From positions 1 through 64,000 of the forward strand of contig JBQLZK010000018.1 of NCBI GenBank assembly GCA_052168235.1: DNA of 64,000 nt. The letters are read 5' to 3'. Source of the stretch: Thainema sp. Its GTDB lineage: Bacteria; Cyanobacteriota; Cyanobacteriia; Phormidesmidales; Phormidesmidaceae. Within the stretch, counting starts at the first letter, position 1. Each line of letters begins with the position of its first letter. The notes under the pieces are model-generated. The model saw only the letters and a program-made list of their open reading frames with translations, was not told the origin of the DNA and did no database searches. This document shows positions 3,858 to 31,249 of the stretch, piece after piece. A program made the translations under genes and the position numbers.

Positions 3858-4652
3858 TTACCGCAATGCTGCCTTCAACTCAGCACACAGTGACTGCACA
3901 GCGGCTAAACCCTCTTCTGGATTCTGACCTGCGAGGCGCTTGACAAAGGCGCTGCCGACGATAACGGCATCGGCACCCCAGCTGCGTAGCTGGGTGGCTT
4001 GTTCGGCTTGGGAGACACCAAAACCGACGCCGATACACTTATCGGATGCCTGGTGTAAATCTTGCAGCAAGCTCTGGACACGATCGTTGACCTGGGTTCG
4101 CATTCCGGTCACGCCTGTGACGCTGACCAGATAAACAAATCCCTGTGATCGCGCAGTAATGGCCTTAATCCGCTCAATCGGGCTGGTGGGAGCGACGAGT
4201 AACGTTAATTCAATTCCGGCTGCGATCGCAGGTTCCATCAGCGTATCGACTTCTTCCAGTGGCAGGTCAGGCACGACGAGTCCTTTTACTCCCGCAGCGG
4301 CAATATTGTCTAGAAAGGTTTTGATTCCCCGATTGAGAATGGGATTGTAGTAAGTGAATAAAACGATGGGTGCCTGGATTGTCGGTGATACCTGCTGTAC
4401 TAGCTTTAGCACGTCATCCAGCTTGACGCCTCGGCTCAGGGCACGCGTCGCTGCGGCCTGAATTACAGGGCCATCAGCTAGTGGATCGGAGTAAGGTACT
4501 CCTAGCTCAATGACATCTGCCCCGTTTTGGTCGAGGATTTGCAGGGCTTTGGCGGTTGTGTCCAAATCGGGATCGCCTGCGGTGATGAAAGGGACTAATG
4601 CACATTCACCGCGATCGCGCAGGGACTGCATACGCTCAGAAACAGATGTCAT
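3858..4652 (-). CDS. trpA: Tryptophan synthase alpha subunit
   Basis: [36 protein letters not shown] and GFGVS motifs. Confidence 0.97.
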
Positions 4653-4798
4653 GGGAATACCGAATAGGCTAGCAAGTTACACATTCTACGGTGCTTTGGG
4701 GCCAAATCCCAAACCAAATTGCAAAGAAAATGCTGGAACAGCTTAGCTGTTCCAGCATTTTCTTAACGGCTTTCATGAGAATTCTGAGATGGGGTAAA

Positions 4799-5152
4799 TC
4801 AAATACCGCTATCTGTTTTTTGTTTTTGCTCTTTTTTCTGCTCGTCTTCTTGTTGCCGTTCCTGTTCAATTTCGGCCTGAAGCTTGGCTAGCTCTGCGGG
4901 CGACATGGCATCCAGCCGCTTTTGCAGAACAGCGTCTTCATAGTCTTTCATCTGCTGGTTGTAGGTCATATTGCGCGTTAGCACCCGTAGCAAATACGTC
5001 AGGAGCCAAACAACGATACCAACAACGAGTCCTGCTTCTGCCCAAATGCCAGCGGTCGTATTGTCCAAACCGATAGCACGCAGCAACACATAGAGCAGCC
5101 CACCCGCACCAAATACAGCTAGGCCAACACCAATTACGTCAATTCGCCGCAT
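4799..5152 (-). CDS. DUF3007-family membrane protein
   Basis: MRRIDVI start, two TM segments, MTYNQQMKDYEDAVLQKRL; usual ndhL-DUF3007-trpA order. Confidence 0.85.
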   Translation of the reverse strand: MRRIDVIGVGLAVFGAGGLLYVLLRAIGLDNTTAGIWAEAGLVVGIVVWLLTYLLRVLTRNMTYNQQMKDYEDAVLQKRLDAMSPAELAKLQAEIEQERQQEDEQKKEQKQKTDSGI

Positions 5153-5155
5153 GAC

Positions 5156-5392
5156 TTATCCTTCAATAGGACGCCGTTTGGGGCGGAAGTTGAGAAACGG
5201 GCTCAGCAACAGCAAACCGGGGAACAGAAGAAATAGTAAACCGTACATCAGCAGGCGCTCAACTGAACTAGCGACATACCAGCGCTCTTTGAGATAGATA
5301 TAGAGCAGTCCAGGCAATACCAACAGGTAAGCTCCGCCTAGCGCTAAGTACAGCCCAGCAGCCAAAATTGGGGTCGTCAACAATTCTTCCAT
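5156..5392 (-). CDS. ndhL: NAD(P)H-quinone oxidoreductase subunit L
   Basis: YLLVLP...[42 protein letters not shown]; likely ATG at 5392. Confidence 0.93.
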
Positions 5393-25159: not shown

Positions 25160-25461
25160 GAGATCGCACTTCTCTATCTCCAACCTCTGAACCTGCGATC
25201 TCACTTTTTCCTCTACTCCCACAGATCAATCCTGCGATCGCACTTCTCTATCCTCAACTTCCAATACTGCGATCGCATTTTTCCGGCAATCCCACAGATC
25301 AATCCTGCGATCGCACTTCTCTATCTCCAACCTCTGAACCTGCGATCGCACTTTCCTCTGCAATCCCACAGATCAAAACTGCGATCGCACTTCTCTATCT
25401 CCAACATCTGAACCTGCGATCGCACTTCTTCTGCAATCTCACAGATCAATACTGCGATCGC
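25160..25461. repeat. HIP1-anchored heterodimeric tandem repeat (about 74 bp x4)
   Basis: HIP1 or 1-mismatch HIP1 at 25160, 25195, 25234, 25269, 25307, 25342, 25381, 25416 and 25454. Spacers alternate between two types (CTTCTCTATCTCCAACCTCTGAAC / ..GCAATCCCACAGATCAAT). Confidence 0.9.
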
Positions 25462-25802: not shown

Positions 25803-26020
25803 TGAGAAATGCATTCCTGCTGAGGAGTAAACGATTGCTGCTTGGCAATCAAGGTTAGGCTATTGTGCGATCGCACTTTTCACTGTCGAGTAGAGAAATA
25901 AAGCTGCTTTTTCAAAACTAAAGAGTTTATCAAGAGGCTTCATGAAATTTATGTTTGAGCCACAGCAGAGCTTTGATATGGCAGCATTAACTAAGTAGCG
26001 CTGAAGTCAAAACAAAACTT

Positions 26021-26635
26021 ATGACCCAGTCTGAAAAATCAACAGCTCGGTTTCGCTCAGCTACAGAATTTCCTCAGAGTGTGCAGGAGCTAGAACGTGC
26101 CGAAGCTGATGCGCTTTATGTAGAGATGCGAGACTGCTTGATTTTCACCAATCGCAGCCGATCTCAGCTTGTACGCCGGAACCAAGAACATAAGGAAAAA
26201 GCACTAGTTCTACAAGAAGATGTACAGCGACTCCAGGGAATGATTTCCCGACTCACATCTGAAAAGCAGCTCATTACCCAGGCAAACCAAGATATCATTC
26301 AGGCGTTAGAAGCAGAGATGGCAACGATGTCGTCTCATCTGAACGAACTGTCTGGTGCTTTTGATGATATTGCCGATATAGAAACGGCTGGACAGGCACA
26401 ATGGGGATTTATGGCTGCCCCGTCTCGTTTCTTCCGCTTTTTGAGAGCTGTTAAAGCAATTGTGCTGTGGTGGCGAGAAGATCAATCTGATGCTGATGGA
26501 AGTACAGCGTTTTCGGCCAAACCTGATGCTCCAGCACTTCCGGGTGAGGTTGTTGATGAAGATCAAGATCGGTTAGACCGTCCTCAGATGTATTCAGATC
26601 AGGCTTCTGTTAATCGGTCGCTATTGGATCGCTAA
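26021..26635 (+). CDS. Hypothetical coiled-coil protein
   Basis: 204-aa ORF with heptad-like central region; tightly linked to the next ORF (4-bp gap). Confidence 0.75.
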   Translation: MTQSEKSTARFRSATEFPQSVQELERAEADALYVEMRDCLIFTNRSRSQLVRRNQEHKEKALVLQEDVQRLQGMISRLTSEKQLITQANQDIIQALEAEMATMSSHLNELSGAFDDIADIETAGQAQWGFMAAPSRFFRFLRAVKAIVLWWREDQSDADGSTAFSAKPDAPALPGEVVDEDQDRLDRPQMYSDQASVNRSLLDR

Positions 26636-26639
26636 AACA

Positions 26640-27038
26640 ATGGGTAAACAACGAGTTCAACAGCTACTGGATCAGCTCAAGGAGAATCAGGCCAAAGACA
26701 TCGAAAACGCGGCTGCTATCTATACAGTTGCTCAAGTTGCCGTTAATGCTCTGAATGAGTCAACTAATGAGTCGTCTGCACCTCAGCTAAGTGCTTCTGC
26801 TTTACCTACTGTTGCATCGATAACGAAGGCTGATTTGCTAGAACGGTACGGTTCGTTTAATGACTGTCGTAAAGCAGCTAAGGCTTTAGGAATCAAGTTT
26901 AGCAAGACGCCATCCTGGGATAAGTTAGAGGCTGCTTTTAGCTATCGTGTAGCTTGTCATCAACTGGTTCAAAGTTATCTAGCGGCATATCCAAATGAGC
27001 ACCTAAATAATGTCTCTTTGGAAATTCCTTTGTATTAA
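26640..27038 (+). CDS. Hypothetical protein
   Basis: 132-aa ORF, ATG 4 bp after the previous stop; helical C-terminal domain LLERYGSFNDCRKAAKALGIKF. Confidence 0.75.
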   Translation: MGKQRVQQLLDQLKENQAKDIENAAAIYTVAQVAVNALNESTNESSAPQLSASALPTVASITKADLLERYGSFNDCRKAAKALGIKFSKTPSWDKLEAAFSYRVACHQLVQSYLAAYPNEHLNNVSLEIPLY

Positions 27039-27057
27039 ATACCCTTTGTAGTTCTTT

Positions 27058-27118
27058 TGTAGGTTGGGTTGAAGCATGAAACCCAACGAGCGTATGGTTC
27101 GCGTCAACTCAACCTACA
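27058..27118. repeat. GTAG-type REP doublet (REPIN-like)
   Basis: TGTAGGTTGGGTTGA...AACCCAAC followed by an inverted TCAACTCAACCTACA (14/15 match). Confidence 0.7.
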
Positions 27119-27226
27119 CAATTTGAGATCGCAACCTCTTCCATCGTGGAACTGCGATCTCACTACACGAGAGATATAAGTACTCTAATTAATAGACTTT
27201 ATTTGTTGCATGTAATTAAAGCTAAA

Positions 27227-28321
27227 ATGGCCAATCAGATAACTAAGAATCAACACTATATTCCCCGCTTTCTACTAAACAACTTTGGTTGGAGAGCAAA
27301 TAAAACAAATAGGATAAACATAATTGACATCAACCGTTTTACTGCGAGATATGATCAGTCGATAGCAAAAAACTTTTCTCAAAATTACTTTTACGATAGA
27401 GATAATTCTGTCGAAAATTGTTTGCAGAAGTACATTGAAGATCCTGCTTGCGGAAGTATCAGAAAAATTCTTGATGGAGAGACTTCAATATCTATTGAAG
27501 ATCGCCATGCCATTCTTATATTTGTCTCCGTACTTTACTTCCGTACTGTTGAAGCCACGGAGAAGGCTCTTTCCTTCATGGAATCATTTTATCAGTCAAT
27601 AGTTGAGCAAATAGTGGCTCTCAATGGCTTCAATCCAGATCACACTCCAAGGCTGAAAATCAATCTTCAAAATCCTAGTGATTTGACTTCCAGAATGGTT
27701 TTTCAAGGATTTATTGATGCAAAAATATTAATAGATCTGGATCTTCATATTATTAAAAATAATTCTGACCTAGGTTTTTGCATATCTGATCATCCAGTAT
27801 TTTTGTACAACTGGTTTTATAAAGACTTAAAGCACCCAGCTGTAACCAGTCTAACTGCAAAAGGCTTACAAATTTTCTTGCCAATATCACCTAACCTACT
27901 AATTCTTTTGTACGATTCAGACACCTATAAAGTTGGCAAAAAGAATTCAAGTATAACCGAGTCCGAAGATATTAATGATGTTGAAATCTTGAATTCGTTC
28001 CAGCTGTTGAACTCAAGATCTATAATAGGTTTTCGCAATCAAACGGATGAAATTAGCTTAATGAAGCTTCTCCGTAAAAACAAAATGAATAAAATATATG
28101 AGCACAAGAGTGCTACTTCTCGGGTAGAAGACGACTTAACGGGAGAAATTAAAACAAATCATCTTGTTTTCACAGATCAACTCAAAATAAAGAAAATGCC
28201 ATCATTTATAACAATAAGGAAAGACGCGAGGAAAGATTTATCTTCCTTTTATGAAAGAAATCCGGCTCTCTCTGCCATACATCAAAGTTATAGAAATAAG
28301 ATCTTACGAGCAGAAAACTGA
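27227..28321 (+). CDS. DUF4238-domain protein
   Basis: N-terminal NQHYIPRFLL, F.QNYFYD, FCISDHPV and IFLPISP motifs; visibly more AT-rich than its neighbours; ATG at 27227. Confidence 0.8.
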   Translation: MANQITKNQHYIPRFLLNNFGWRANKTNRINIIDINRFTARYDQSIAKNFSQNYFYDRDNSVENCLQKYIEDPACGSIRKILDGETSISIEDRHAILIFVSVLYFRTVEATEKALSFMESFYQSIVEQIVALNGFNPDHTPRLKINLQNPSDLTSRMVFQGFIDAKILIDLDLHIIKNNSDLGFCISDHPVFLYNWFYKDLKHPAVTSLTAKGLQIFLPISPNLLILLYDSDTYKVGKKNSSITESEDINDVEILNSFQLLNSRSIIGFRNQTDEISLMKLLRKNKMNKIYEHKSATSRVEDDLTGEIKTNHLVFTDQLKIKKMPSFITIRKDARKDLSSFYERNPALSAIHQSYRNKILRAEN

Positions 28322-28385
28322 ATTTAAGTTGCTTGTCAATATAATCCTAGAATCCTTTCTAATCGTCTCTGTCAATGAACCTGTA

Positions 28386-28414
28386 TTGACTCCAAAAGCC
28401 AAATCCCGTACTGT
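28386..28414 (+). promoter_or_regulatory. Sigma70-type promoter
   Basis: TTGACT (28386-28391), 17-bp spacer, TACTGT (28409-28414). Confidence 0.55.
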
Positions 28415-28420
28415 GAAACG

Positions 28421-28612
28421 TTAAGTTGCCTTGGCAACATCACCTGCAACGGCAACTGGATACCAAAAATCTAGTCAGCGCTACCCAGAGTTGCGGCAAC
28501 AACCCTGGATAGCTAACCCCCGGTTGGCGTAGGCAACGCGGAGGCTTGAGGGATCATAACCCAGAGCCACCCTGCATTGCACTTCAGGATTGCGGGGTGG
28601 CTAGGTTTTTGG
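28421..28612 (+). ncRNA. Putative structured leader RNA / attenuator
   Basis: Hairpins 28480-28513 and 28566-28601 (the latter followed closely by a T-run); alternative long-range pairing of 28463-28477 with 28598-28612; recurring GGCAAC motifs. Confidence 0.5.
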
Positions 28613-28648
28613 CTTTCCTCTCGAAAGTCAAAAACACAAGGAAACACA

Positions 28649-28933
28649 ATGACATACCTCTTCCTCGGTGCTGCCTCTGAAGCAGCACCACAACCCGCTG
28701 CGACCATTCCCAATCAACCAACTCGCGATGGTCGCCATCCCCTGCGGATTATCCTGCTCGGCACCCGTCCTGACATCATTGTCACCATCAAAAACCTGCA
28801 TCGGCGCGGCTTTGCCGAAGCCAACGAATGGAGCCAGCCCATCCCCTGCCCCAGTGCCGGAGACGTAGCGCGCATCCTGGCTCAGCGCCATCCCGACGAC
28901 CAAATCAGCATCCTCACCCGCCATCTCAGCTAA
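28649..28933 (+). CDS. Small hypothetical protein (94 aa), recurrent cyanobacterial family
   Basis: AAGGA RBS at 28638 and ATG at 28649. LRIILLG...TIKNLHRRGFAEANEWSQPIP...ISILTR resembles a multicopy cyanobacterial small-protein family (recognised from memory). Confidence 0.7.
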   Translation: MTYLFLGAASEAAPQPAATIPNQPTRDGRHPLRIILLGTRPDIIVTIKNLHRRGFAEANEWSQPIPCPSAGDVARILAQRHPDDQISILTRHLS

Positions 28934-28955
28934 TCGGTTGAAGTTGAGATATCCC

Positions 28956-29021
28956 AGAAACCGGGTTTCTTGTTTCGCGTATTTTGTATAACCAAATGCT
29001 TGCGACAGAAACTCGGTTTCT
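28956..29021. repeat. Palindromic REP-like doublet
   Basis: AGAAACCGGGTTTCT (28956-28970) and AGAAACTCGGTTTCT (29007-29021). Confidence 0.65.
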
Positions 29022-29134
29022 AGATCTAGATAGAGAAGCATTTCCACCACCTGATGGAGTGCGATCGCATCCTGAATTTTTTAGAGTTTAGGAATAGAAA
29101 CGTTGCCCCAATACAAGTTACAGATACAAAGTTA

Positions 29135-30106
29135 ATGTCCTATCGATTTAAAAAGCAGGAAGCCGTTCCAATTGGTATTAAACGCATCGCTGACGAACAG
29201 ATTGAGTCGTCCATTCATCAGCTCACGCGCAGTATCAAAGCCAATCGAGATGAAGCCATTCACAGCGCTCGCAAACACTTCAAAAAACTGCGAGCACTCG
29301 TTCGATTACTGCGGGATGATGTTGGCCACGATGCCTACAAGCAAGAAAACGTCTGCTTCCGCGATGCGGGTCGCGAACTGTCTGACGTGCGTGATGCCCA
29401 AGTGCGCGTCGAAACCCTCGACGACCTGCTCGATCACTATCAGGACACGATCAAACCTAAGCAGTTTGATCAGATTCGCCAAGTTCTCGTCGATGCCTAC
29501 GAGACGGCCCGCAAATCCGCAGCGCCCAATAAAAAAGAAATTGCCGACATCGTGTCCGATCTAGAAGCCGCCCAAGCCCGGATTCAAGCCTGGGGCATCA
29601 ACGACGAATGGGCCGCGCTTCAGGGCGGACTGCACCGAGTTTATAAGCGAGGCTATCAAGACTTCTTCCAGGCGTGCGAACAGCCCACTTCCGAGAATTT
29701 ACACGAATGGCGCAAGCGGGTGAAATATCTCTGGTACCACCTGCGAATTCTGTCCCCGATGTGGCCCAAGCCGCTGAAGGTACTGAAAAAGCAGACCAAG
29801 AAACTGGCTGACCTACTGGGCGATGATCACGACCTTGCCGTGCTGCGGACATTTATTAGCGATGACCCAGAAGCGTTTGCCGATGACGATCAGCTCGGCG
29901 TCCTGCTGGCCCTGATTCAGCGGCGACAGATTGAACTACAGACCAAGGCTCGGTTCTTGGGTCAGCGGATCTACGCAGAAAAGCCCAAAGCATTTGTTAA
30001 ACGGATGGGCAGTTACTGGCAGGCACGGCAAACCGAGATGGCGCAGCCGCCCGTACCGATGTCTAAATCATCCGGTCGCAGCACATTTGAATTCACCAAT
30101 GTTTAA
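29135..30106 (+). CDS. CHAD-domain protein (polyphosphate-binding)
   Basis: IHSARKHFKKLRALVRL, RDAQV, LHEWRKRVKYLWY and LGDDHDLAVL motifs; ATG at 29135. Confidence 0.9.
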   Translation: MSYRFKKQEAVPIGIKRIADEQIESSIHQLTRSIKANRDEAIHSARKHFKKLRALVRLLRDDVGHDAYKQENVCFRDAGRELSDVRDAQVRVETLDDLLDHYQDTIKPKQFDQIRQVLVDAYETARKSAAPNKKEIADIVSDLEAAQARIQAWGINDEWAALQGGLHRVYKRGYQDFFQACEQPTSENLHEWRKRVKYLWYHLRILSPMWPKPLKVLKKQTKKLADLLGDDHDLAVLRTFISDDPEAFADDDQLGVLLALIQRRQIELQTKARFLGQRIYAEKPKAFVKRMGSYWQARQTEMAQPPVPMSKSSGRSTFEFTNV

Positions 30107-30133
30107 CGACTCTGTCAGTGGATGATGCCTATC

Positions 30134-31249
30134 CTACTTTTTGAGGGTCGGCTTTGGAATCAGTTGGGCCACAAGATCGGCAAGCTGTTCGGCGCTGTCG
30201 TTAATCGCCAACCGAGCGGCTGCCGCTTTCATAGCCTCTAAGCGCTCAGGCGATTCCAGCAGGCTAATCACCTTTTCTTGCAGGATATCTGCTGTCAGTT
30301 CCGACTGACGACACACTTGGGCCGCTCCTGCCGCTGCAAAGATAGCCGCATTGTAGGCTTGATGATCTTCCGCTGCAAAGGGATAGGGAATCAGAATAGA
30401 CGGCGTGTGGCTGATTGCCAGTTCCGTCAGCGTCCCCGCTCCGGCGCGACTCACCGCTAAATCCGCACGGCTCAGCAGTTCAGCCATGTGGTCATAGAAC
30501 GGCAGGGCAATGTACTGCGGATGACTGAGACTGTCGGCCTCCGGATCATTACTGCCCGTGAGATGAACAATCCAGGCTCCGGCCTTAAACCAAGCGGGGG
30601 CACATTCGCGCACCAAGTGATTCACCGCGACTGCCCCCTGACTGCCACCAATAACGACAATTAGCGGCACATCGTCTGGGATTTCTAAACTGGGCGGTGC
30701 AGACTTAGACGCGACCAGCCGAAGAAACTGCGATCGCACGGGCGTACCGACACAAATTGATTTTGCTTTGGGTAAGTATTGAGCAGCGGCTTCAAAGCCC
30801 AGCGCCACGCTGCTGCACATGGGGCTGAGCCAGCGGGTTACTTTTCCCGGCAGCGCATTGGACTCATGCAGAATAGTCGGCAGTCCCTGCATTTTCGCGG
30901 CAATAATAGCGGGTGCCGCAATATATCCCCCGGTCGTAAATACACCGTCAAACTGCCCCTGGTGCAGAATGTGGCGCACCTGCTGAATAGAACGCAGGAA
31001 GCGCAGGAAGGAACGAGCGGTACGTAAACCCAACCGCCCCTGTAATCCCTCTACCGCAATCGTGTGCAGGGGATACTGGTCTGGAACCAAAACCGTTTCC
31101 AGGCGGTCTGGTACTCCCAACCACTCAATTGAATACTGGGGGAGCCGTTCAGCGGTTGCGATCGCAGGAAACAGATGTCCTCCGGTGCCGCTTGCGGCAA
31201 TTAACAAACGGGGGGCAGACGTGCTCAATACTCCAGGTTCTCCAAACAC
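30134..31249 (-). CDS. murG: Undecaprenyldiphospho-muramoylpentapeptide beta-N-acetylglucosaminyltransferase
   Basis: SGTGGHLFP, TGGYIA, HESNALPG, GGSQGA, SRAGAGT and DHQAYNA motifs. Confidence 0.96.
   Translation of the reverse strand: MFGEPGVLSTSAPRLLIAASGTGGHLFPAIATAERLPQYSIEWLGVPDRLETVLVPDQYPLHTIAVEGLQGRLGLRTARSFLRFLRSIQQVRHILHQGQFDGVFTTGGYIAAPAIIAAKMQGLPTILHESNALPGKVTRWLSPMCSSVALGFEAAAQYLPKAKSICVGTPVRSQFLRLVASKSAPPSLEIPDDVPLIVVIGGSQGAVAVNHLVRECAPAWFKAGAWIVHLTGSNDPEADSLSHPQYIALPFYDHMAELLSRADLAVSRAGAGTLTELAISHTPSILIPYPFAAEDHQAYNAAIFAAAGAAQVCRQSELTADILQEKVISLLESPERLEAMKAAAARLAINDSAEQLADLVAQLIPKPTLKK

Follow-up and report, generated by a model that had tools for sequence, protein, structure and literature searches.

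What kind of genetic element occupies positions 28364–28933 of the DNA analysed here, a 64,000-nucleotide (nt) stretch of a Thainema sp. contig (JBQLZK010000018.1; hereafter the window), and what does the structured RNA in its 5′ half do for the small open reading frame (ORF) in its 3′ half? An earlier reading of the same letters (the original prediction) had proposed an undescribed module of promoter, structured leader and small protein, and such a module was indeed recovered as a conserved unit without a match in Rfam. The locus represents, with high confidence, one copy of a dispersed, multicopy unit of RNA plus small protein found in Leptolyngbya-like cyanobacteria, and with similarly high confidence its leader is an undescribed structured RNA, physically and evolutionarily coupled to the small protein gene. 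With moderate confidence, this RNA acts both as a terminated small RNA (sRNA) and as the gate for transcription of the ORF, while our confidence is low as to the role of the protein alongside the RNA and the meaning of the code carried by the RNA loops.

A repeated unit of structured RNA and small protein gene

Comparison of paralogues showed that window positions 28364–28933 make up one copy of a unit of approximately 570 bp, consisting of a promoter, an RNA of about 190 nt, a Shine-Dalgarno (SD) sequence and an ORF of 94 amino acids (aa). On the left, the alignment of paralogues begins with a semi-conserved block just 5′ of the −35 box (28364–28385, forward strand), and on the right the unit ends at the stop codon of the ORF. 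In pairwise comparisons the ends were sharp, with homology running from about −250/−296 to about +262/+286 relative to the ATG and unrelated flanks beyond. The neighbouring genes differed at every copy; for roughly half of the copies they are of a defence-like or mobile kind (TIR, NACHT, CHAT, ThsA Macro, integrase and HNH; DUF4238 in the window), and for the remainder they are ordinary metabolic genes.

The proposal of a multicopy cyanobacterial family was borne out by a profile search with the protein, in which 40 of 41 candidates were relatives at E ≤ 1e-3, nine clusters being labelled Thainema sp. metagenome-assembled genome (MAG) and two Oculatella sp. LEGE 06141. When one genome per species was scanned, protein relatives were encoded at 21 loci: nine in one MAG (contigs CBKWJC01...), seven in Oculatella sp. 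LEGE 06141, a single one in a MAG of Leptolyngbyaceae and four in MAGs of marine cyanobacteria. In its record, the Oculatella genome has a strain designation of the isolate type. By blastn, the 348 nt located 5′ of the window ORF matched 16 of these 21 loci, with 74–91% identity, and the leader was still detected at approximately 75% identity where the ORF was not. The loci without a match were L009, where the contig begins inside the ORF, and the four marine loci (L018–L021).

The RNA was found directly 5′ of the ORF in all 17 assessable copies, which comprise the window copy, eight loci of one Thainema-like MAG, the seven Oculatella loci and the Leptolyngbyaceae locus. A covariance model built from these 17 RNAs gave full-length matches in 17 of 23 sources, and no orphan or additional RNA copies were detected in the 258,766 bases searched. 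The same model found no RNA upstream of five distant homologues (L018–L021 and a gene on an Anabaena plasmid), and the upstream regions of such RNA-less homologues were not unusually structured (z of −1.28 and −1.93). The plasmid gene, from Anabaena cylindrica, was one of three distant homologues found on plasmids by tblastn and the one that was examined; its upstream region was unrelated to the leader and likewise not unusually structured. The genes at L018–L021 are single-copy and syntenic with an amidase and a glutathione S-transferase, an arrangement that may represent the ancestral, RNA-less state of the gene. Their position is conserved between a divergent DUF3747-Amidase_3 gene and the glutathione S-transferase gene. 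The RNA appears to come with the amplification of the gene into many copies, of which seven to more than nine diverged ones are present per genome.

The RNA has a conserved fold with a long-range closing helix

The segment at 28415–28660 had a minimum free energy (MFE) of −92.2 kcal/mol (z = −5.34), and none of 200 shuffled sequences was as stable. For the 17 aligned copies, RNAalifold returned a consensus of 53 pairs, 10 of them with a compensatory change. In a fixed structure of 49 pairs, 96.9% of the 830 cells were paired, as compared with 29–51% when the 3′ partner was slid by one to three columns. Nine of the 49 pairs had changed on both sides, a number reached by 1 of 500 shuffles, and the covariation score of 0.191 (0.129 in shuffles) was reached by 0 of 500, in a control that ignores relatedness and includes seven near-identical paralogues. 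Since the sequences are related, the independent compensatory events are few, and they fall mostly between genera and among the nine Thainema-like copies. The outcome was a conserved and covarying structure upstream of the homologues, the absence of which would have spoken against the original prediction.

The fold, all on the forward strand, starts with the 5′ hairpin H1 (arms 28420–28430 and 28451–28461), which has 10 pairs, 94.7% of them formed across the alignment, and two compensatory changes (AU/GC and CG/UA); its apex at 28431–28450 varies among copies in sequence and in length (2–27 nt). Next comes the A-tract CCAAAAAUCU (28463–28472), the 5′ arm of the long-range helix H2, followed by H3 (28480–28513; loop CGGCAA at 28494–28499), which has 10 pairs (95.8% paired) and three compensatory changes and was recovered from the sequence and the list of inverted repeats at exactly the coordinates originally given. 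H4 (28517–28544; loop GCGUAGG at 28527–28533) has eight pairs (95.6% paired) and two compensatory changes, and its GUUG/CAAC top is invariant. A mini-hairpin had been predicted at 28527–28539, and it exists as the top of H4, although slightly displaced, the apex GTTG-GCGTAGG-CAAC lying at 28523–28537 on the longer helix.

Between H4 and the last hairpin lies a small stem, H4b (28550–28562; GGG/CCC in the window copy), which is tentative as the alignment contains indels here; its loop carries an invariant A-U-n-n-U-A (28553–28558). The GC-rich, terminator-like hairpin H5 (28565–28602) follows, with 11 pairs (97.9% paired), two compensatory changes and a conserved 16-nt loop, AUUGCACUUCAGGAUU; in the window copy its 12-nt arms are 92% complementary. 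Finally, the 3′ arm of H2, AGGUUUUUGG (28603–28612), which includes the U-run at 28606–28610, pairs with the A-tract through 10 pairs that are formed in 100% of the copies. In the consensus fold, H2 closes a multi-way junction of H3, H4 and H4b and stacks directly on H5. Many unpaired positions in the junctions and in the H4b and H5 loops are invariant, and the peripheral loops are variable.

No relevant family, be it C4 antisense RNA, a riboswitch, T-box, 6S, Y RNA or a ribozyme, was detected by cmscan against Rfam 15 at E ≤ 10, applied to window positions 26000–31000 and to positions 4600–5300 of the Oculatella locus L012; the matches returned were short chance ones to miRNA, snoRNA, U6 and TYMV families, far below the gathering scores. 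Such an Rfam scan had been proposed together with the original prediction. No description of the RNA-protein module was found in the literature, as far as listings and the openings of abstracts reveal. The unit would thereby add a large structured RNA class (about 190 nt, five to six helices and a long-range closing helix) outside the Rfam families.

The sequence GGCAAC, on which part of the original argument was based, occurs at 28433, 28451, 28495 and 28532 (four of the 22 occurrences in the window, within 100 nt), with GTTGCC at 28425. All four are present as described, but the fourfold repeat is specific to the window copy, and what the other copies share with it is no more than the GCAAC of the H1 and H4 3′ arms. 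The repetition is mostly a consequence of three GUUG...CAAC hairpin tops and is not conserved as such. Three of the seven GTTG-N6-7-CAAC palindromes in the window are located within 28425–28537; shuffled sequences contained a mean of 2.27 for the whole window.

An upstream coding frame running through the leader (TTG at 28577) was considered and ruled out, as indels break its conservation.

The RNA scaffold is more constrained than the protein

The copies were compared by the proportions of differing sites. Among six near-identical Oculatella copies, the values were 0.157 for synonymous sites (pS), 0.025 for nonsynonymous sites (pN), 0.010 for the leader outside the loops and 0.548 for the H3 and H4 loops. 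The corresponding values among nine Thainema-like copies were 0.49, 0.10, 0.158 and 0.536, and between the genera pS was 0.745 (saturated), pN 0.388, the leader outside the loops 0.229 and the loops 0.535. With pN/pS of about 0.16–0.2 among paralogues, the ORF (28649–28933, forward strand) is, judging by its substitution pattern, a real gene under purifying selection. By the same measure, no part of the unit is under stronger constraint than the RNA scaffold, which evolves about 15 times more slowly than synonymous sites and is better conserved than the protein.

The H3 and H4 loops, on the other hand, are far more divergent than synonymous sites. The leaders of the Oculatella copies agree in every alignment column apart from those of the two loops, those of the spacer between SD and ATG, and a very few others, of which two lie in the junction and one close to the 3′ end of H1. 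Scaffold divergence amounted to 1–3% within Oculatella and 18–29% to the other genus, and the scaffolds clustered by genome, which points to concerted evolution of the scaffold. The family may thus offer a natural system in which co-resident paralogous RNAs keep distinct identities despite concerted scaffold evolution.

A terminator-like hairpin between promoter and ORF

The promoter of the unit (28386–28414, forward strand) consists of the −35 box TTGACT (28386–28391), a 17-nt spacer and the −10 box TACTGT (28409–28414). It had been called canonical, which holds for the −35 box (5/6 to consensus) but less so for the −10 box, which matches TATAAT at only three of six positions, and the site is missing from the list of the consensus promoter scan. 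Both hexamers are nonetheless conserved in position: the −35 box is TTGACT in 15 of 16 copies (TTGACG in L004), at the same place in every copy that reaches that far, and the −10 box is TACTGT, TACCGT or TATTGT at a constant position in 17 of 17. Transcription would then start at approximately 28420.

Two further features of the promoter region were observed. An inverted repeat with an operator-like look, GTCAAT-N8-ATTGAC (28371–28376 and 28385–28390), overlaps the −35 box; L001 retains it, the other Thainema-like copies have a degenerate version and the Oculatella copies have none. In addition, the spacer sequence AAAGCCAAA (28395–28403) is perfectly complementary to TTTGGCTTT (28608–28616) downstream of H5, a complementarity that is probably irrelevant to the RNA, since AAAGCCAAA lies upstream of the likely start site.

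Between this start and the ORF, the consensus scan lists a terminator-like site made up of H5 and the U-run at 28606–28610, in agreement with the GC-rich hairpin and nearby T-run noted before. The run of five T begins 3 nt past the H5 stem and, like the GGCUUUCC that comes after it, hardly varies among copies. With 38 nt from the U-run to the ATG (28649), there is no space for a separate promoter. The SD sequence AAGGA (28638–28642, forward strand) is located 6 nt before the ATG, and a purine-rich GGA or GGAG is found at the same distance in all 17 copies.

The reading that we favour, to which we give about an even chance, is that of a terminator-gated unit with two outputs, an sRNA and, by read-through, the protein, the mechanism being one that we infer. 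Most transcripts would stop at the U-run and yield a stable sRNA with its 3′ U-tail tucked into H2; the terminated RNA of about 190 nt that was originally expected would fit this anatomy. A minority of transcripts would read through, as the only route to transcription of the ORF, and because no other route exists the terminator would set a high ratio of RNA to protein. Binders of H3 or H4 could moreover tune termination, since the A-tract reaches the terminator base only when the junction is folded. The two apical loops would serve as paralogue-specific identity elements, and an action of the protein together with the RNA can be guessed from their strict co-occurrence. Such a unit would constitute a natural system in which a terminator within a multi-way junction sets the ratio of sRNA to mRNA.

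This reading has much in common with terminator-containing leaders and sRNAs derived from 5′ untranslated regions, which also comprise a promoter, a long structured leader and a terminator-like hairpin with a U-run before the SD and ORF, without a second promoter. As in attenuator leaders, the terminated leader would be a stable sRNA. In contrast to them, we found no antiterminator directed at the terminator's 5′ arm, the pairing partner of the U-run is an A-tract situated 130 nt further 5′, the terminator is an arm of a closed multi-way junction, the genome holds seven to more than nine diverged copies, and the RNA is more conserved than the protein.

A switch had been predicted in which CCAAAAATCTAGTCA (28463–28477) pairs with TGGCTAGGTTTTTGG (28598–28612) and disrupts the terminator base. 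The two segments are 87% complementary and the pairing does exist, but it stacks on the terminator hairpin and does not qualify as a classical antiterminator: the U-run, which comes after the terminator stem, forms its 3′ arm, and in the consensus fold it coexists with the intact stem, for which reason it was not accepted as an antiterminator. The A-tract segment can compete only for the bottom 5 bp of H5, where the sole competitor pairing sets AGUCA (28473–28477) against AGCCA (28565–28569) for UGGCU (28598–28602) in the 3′ arm. Neither the consensus fold nor the list of inverted repeats contained a conserved upstream complement to the 5′ arm of H5 that could act as a preemptor.

A second, translational level of control is possible in transcripts that read through. 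The 3′ arm of H2 and the CUUUCCU that continues it to 28619 make up a hub that hardly varies and has three candidate partners, the A-tract, positions 28623–28635 and the SD/AUG region. In read-through RNA, the hub (28602–28619) could accordingly pair in H2, in H6, which leaves the SD free, or with the SD/AUG region. H6 (28605–28635, forward strand; GUUUUUGGCUUUC / GAAAGUCAAAAAC) is an alternative hairpin of 13 pairs (87.7% paired) without compensatory change, possible in read-through transcripts only and exclusive of H2. It is contained in the MFE fold of the window copy and is the segment MFE in all nine Thainema-like copies, and a shortened form (GGCUU/AAGCC) is present in six of seven Oculatella copies (not L010). 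When the U-run was made unavailable in state-dependent folds, the SD became paired in six of nine Thainema-like copies and the AUG region in seven of seven Oculatella copies. A translational switch operated through the hub is regarded as a lead rather than a result, with low confidence.

The same features would suit a riboswitch-like or autoregulatory leader, in which the junction closed by H2 forms a pocket for a ligand or protein. Binding would stabilise H2, lock the U-run/CUUUCCU hub and shift read-through RNA from the H6 state, with the SD open, to one in which it is occluded. The many invariant unpaired positions in the junction and in the H4b and H5 loops, next to variable peripheral loops, are what such a pocket would show, and the three alternative partners of the hub, the pairing of SD or AUG once the U-run is unavailable and the strict link of the RNA to one gene family all agree with it. 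However, the occluded states have small energies and are paired differently in the two genera, H2 and H6 show no covariation, and the peripheral loops, which should drift neutrally, keep specific sequences across genera. The protein cannot be reading the loops either, as the Oculatella proteins are near-identical (pN 0.025) while the loops differ. An aptamer containing its own terminator as an arm would, to our knowledge, be atypical. Taken together, we consider a riboswitch-like leader rather unlikely.

Several observations also weigh against the terminator-gated unit. No mutually exclusive antiterminator for the 5′ arm of H5 was found, so that regulated attenuation is at most a possibility. 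H2 changes are one-sided only (G-U/A-U), so that H2, like H6, lacks compensatory changes, and both helices are, as aligned, too conserved to separate a constraint on pairing from one on sequence. The anti-SD pairing is weak (−2.6 to −4.9 kcal/mol) and is found in only six of nine Thainema-like copies, with a different pairing in Oculatella instead, of AGCCA with UGGCU at the AUG. With a weak −10 box (3/6) and a U-run that starts 3 nt past the stem, termination may or may not be efficient. We infer the start site, the terminated 3′ end and the read-through alike. As to a partnership with the RNA, the protein has a net charge of about +2 (hand count) and no fold or family match, and nothing about it indicates RNA binding. 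Finally, the model leaves unexplained why loop sequences are conserved across genera and yet flip in orientation.

Apical loops and their possible partners

The apical loops of H3 and H4 are paralogue-specific on an otherwise near-identical scaffold. The 34 loops of the 17 copies form a small vocabulary, with 11 same-sense pairs and eight reverse-complement pairs at ≤1 mismatch; shuffling led to expectations of 1.14 and 0.74, respectively, and reverse-only and complement-only controls gave 0. Among the 29 unique loops, three pairs were exact reverse complements, where 0.056 were expected from within-loop shuffling and 0.10 from position-specific composition (P ≤ 0.0002 for both). One reverse-complement pair, L013/L016, involves sister copies that share a common stem variant, another joins the Thainema-like L005 to the Oculatella L012, and a third is L004/L011. 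The same loop word can stand at H3 in one copy and at H4 in others, and L003 and L010, which belong to different genera, have an identical H4 loop and a nearly identical H3 loop. Free drift of the loops does not account for this distribution: particular words are retained from genus to genus, whichever way round they stand.

That orientation seems not to matter could be explained if the loops belong to a sense/antisense pair, if loops of different RNAs pair with each other, or if the target is double-stranded. Given that words are present along with their reverse complements, an RNA might find its partner by pairing of loops, which leads to the idea that the loops, perhaps together with the H1 apex, are an orientation-independent address code, each RNA carrying two words from a small set that is retained across genera. 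The partners could be other paralogues, the RNA's own antisense transcripts or either strand of a double-stranded target. If true, this would be a combinatorial system of RNA addressing or assembly with a dedicated small protein, without a described bacterial counterpart, although we hold such a code to be quite unlikely. In the list of loop pairs, complementary loops were not enriched within genomes (2 of 213 pairs within, 6 of 348 between), the complementarity of loops to their own ORF or their own 5-kb flanks was no higher than to those of other copies, and no H3 loop was seen by eye to be complementary to the H4 loop of the same copy.

A T-box-like reading, with H3 as an anticodon mimic, was also tried, as position 2 is U in 10 of the 11 H3 loops that are seven nt long and position 6 is a purine in all 11. 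The pattern is symmetric under reverse complementation and so is explained by the flips, and the H4 loops do not fit the UGGN acceptor-binding motif. The reading was rejected.

Control by an antisense RNA, also raised in the original prediction, is the first rival to the terminator-gated unit. A short counter-transcript would start from a minus-strand promoter within the leader (−10-like box, 28558→28553) and run back through H4 and H3; kissing of the nascent leader through the two loops would alter termination or translation, and the differing loops would prevent cross-talk between copies. A minus-strand TAnnAT is indeed found in 17 of 17 copies (TATGAT in the window; elsewhere TATAAT, TACAAT, TAAGAT or TAAAAT), with variation at the middle two positions only, and in the Oculatella copies it is directly preceded by TGG, which we interpret as an extended −10 element (TGn). 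That the copies diverge in their loops, on a scaffold that is otherwise the same, is in line with this model, flips of the loops would be neutral for a sense/antisense pair, and H3 is so symmetric that the reverse strand of all 17 copies matches the covariance model (E of 1e-5 to 7e-2).

Plasmids provide well-known parallels. In pT181, pIP501 and pAMbeta1, antisense attenuation is an established mechanism (PMC2879508). In ColE1, RNA I and RNA II interact through kissing loops. The present unit resembles this group in that two stem-loops, with loops that differ between otherwise similar replicons or copies, precede a terminator before the regulated gene, and that a −10-like box lies on the opposite strand. 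It differs in that it is chromosomal, dispersed and not tied to a replication gene, its antisense promoter and terminator are putative, and we found no preemptor-like pairing that could take the place of the terminator's 5′ arm. On the minus strand, no −35 box stands at a constant distance (the spacer to any candidate varies by 5–7 nt) and, on reading the sequence, no canonical terminator is present, the nearest feature being a U-run about 9 nt after the H3′ stem. For these two reasons antisense control is ranked as the first rival and not as the best explanation. A pure sense/antisense model further leaves unexplained that exact loop sequences survive between genera at saturated pS, and AUnnUA may be merely a conserved RNA loop. 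We therefore deem antisense control unlikely.

The related analogy to the immunity RNAs of phages P1 (C4) and P4 (CI) found no support, the likeness being limited to the broad notion of a small structured RNA acting on expression downstream: Rfam gave no such match at E ≤ 10, and no phage genes surround the locus, the setting of which is not phage-like. The target is also not known to contain repeats of the seqA/seqB type. Searches with the leader DNA returned no match among plasmids and, among phages, nothing beyond a 30-nt chance match in a Yersinia phage.

The flips could alternatively originate at the level of DNA, if the GTTG-N6-7-CAAC palindromes were protein-binding or recombination sites around an invertible spacer and the unit a mobile or recombining cassette. 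Three palindromes lie within 115 bp, their spacers are found either way round and have been swapped between H3 and H4, and the unit is dispersed, multicopy and sharp-ended. A parallel exists in the minute hairpin-loop inversions of chloroplast non-coding DNA (Kelchner & Wendel 1996, as cited in PMC12371153), where stem-flanked loops are likewise exact reverse complements in related copies, as in L013/L016. In contrast to that case, however, the loops here belong to a functional, strongly constrained bacterial RNA gene, and the flipped forms are conserved across genera. The helices tolerate G-U pairs, which would be mismatches in DNA (one H3 pair is CG in seven copies and UG in six), and the long-range helix, the terminator and the overall fold point to RNA. 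No recombinase is consistently nearby, an integrase being present at one (L011) of the 20 loci scanned for neighbours, and the alignments inspected showed neither terminal repeats nor target duplications at the ends of the unit, no dedicated search having been made. A purely DNA-level feature is accordingly considered highly improbable.

Integron attC or similar tyrosine-recombinase core sites were rejected as a specific form of this idea. The outer boxes of attC read RYYYAAC ... GTTRRRY, and the arms found here are GTTG[loop]CAAC, with GTT on the 5′ side; the single integrase among 20 loci was a further reason.

The 94-aa protein belongs to a broad uncharacterised family

The ORF has a G+C content of 60%, compared with 48.7% for the window, and encodes a variable N-terminal region of about 28 aa, which is of low confidence in the structural model, followed by a conserved core (PLRIILLG..DII.TIKNLHRRGFAEANEWS...ISILTR.L). 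The wider family comprises 343 representatives (50% identity) at E ≤ 1e-3, 22 of them at E ≤ 1e-10, with the consensus REPxRxLLIGS..V..TI..LH.RGFAE...WS...P.P..GEVMSILTR, which the window ORF matches over the conserved core; W61 is invariant in 141 sequences. Named matches were all to hypothetical proteins, the exceptions being a JGI label, "uncharacterized protein YcaQ" (P0231), and a metaclust tag that conveys nothing, and the ESM Atlas gave unnamed cyanobacterial clusters only. The family is thus a broad, uncharacterised one of small proteins of filamentous cyanobacteria, and the unit described here offers an entry point to its function. The domain can be repeated, occurring twice in tandem in P0055 (163 aa) and in six matched stretches in P0115 (896 aa).

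Neither the protein nor 26 diverse relatives had a match in Pfam, NCBIfam or PADLOC, and a profile search of the PDB with the protein found none. With 141 sequences, AlphaFold2 reached a pLDDT of 76.6, with block means of 94–98 for residues 31–60, and produced a strand-helix-(short helix)-strand arrangement behind the low-confidence N-terminus; with 24 sequences, the pLDDT was only 57.9. Foldseek comparison of the better model with the PDB gave a best E of 0.27, and the weak likenesses to MinE, ACT, E2 DNA-binding and KH folds were not used.

The position of the protein gene bears on a further alternative, a pair of the type III toxin-antitoxin kind or another RNA-protein pair, in which an abundant RNA would neutralise the protein or act as its partner, in a ratio fixed by the terminator. 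ToxIN-type loci are ordered as promoter, RNA gene, terminator and protein gene, and the present unit shares this order, presumably with the RNA in excess, as in the CptIN and TenpIN systems. RNA and ORF occur together in 17 of 17 assessable copies, and about half of the copies adjoin defence-like or mobile genes, although the latter is weak evidence because filamentous cyanobacteria are rich in NACHT, TIR and WD40 genes. On the other hand, no tandem repeats are present (Tandem Repeats Finder, 0 rows for 28300–29100 at score ≥ 30), and the lack of PADLOC, Pfam and NCBIfam matches places the protein outside the known toxin families ToxN, AbiEii, CptN and TenpN. Moreover, the wider family is mostly without the RNA, five of five distant homologues examined lacking it. 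A toxin-antitoxin-like pair is therefore judged very unlikely, and the terminator-gated unit remains the favoured reading.

Neighbouring genes and other repeats

Immediately upstream of the unit, window positions 27146–28321 (forward strand) encode a DUF4238 protein (E 9e-35) without a PADLOC match. With 34% G+C as compared with 48.7% for the window, this gene looks like recently acquired DNA. Downstream, a long imperfect inverted repeat, GAAACCGGGTTTCT...AGAAACTCGGTTTCT (28952–29025), is located between the ORF stop and a CHAD-domain gene (29054–30106); it gave a chance mir-85 match in Rfam and has no counterpart in the other loci. ARAGORN found no tRNA or tmRNA across the whole window.

In Oculatella, some copies share more than the core unit: L012, L013 and L015 share flanks from about −554 to +372/+421 relative to the ATG, and L014 and L016 share −805 to +302, which suggests segmental duplication beyond the core. 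A HIP1-like sequence (GCGATCGC/CGATCG) is found just 5′ of the unit in this genome.

Two further repeats were encountered in the course of the comparisons. At approximately 25194–25395 of the window, a sequence of about 55 nt is present in three neighbouring copies some 73 nt apart, and it also matches L001 (about 2441–2495), L005 and L008, which makes it a short dispersed repeat of these genomes. A second repeat of about 105 nt, resembling a miniature inverted-repeat transposable element and bounded by the terminal inverted repeats GATTGCCCTCA...TGAGGGCAATC, directly follows the ORF stop in two copies. It is absent from the window and was located at L003 (5284–5390, and 7678–7783 on the minus strand), L006 (5282–5385), L001 (5402–5495, minus strand) and L007 (7780–7872), and it occurs elsewhere in the MAG as well, in either orientation.

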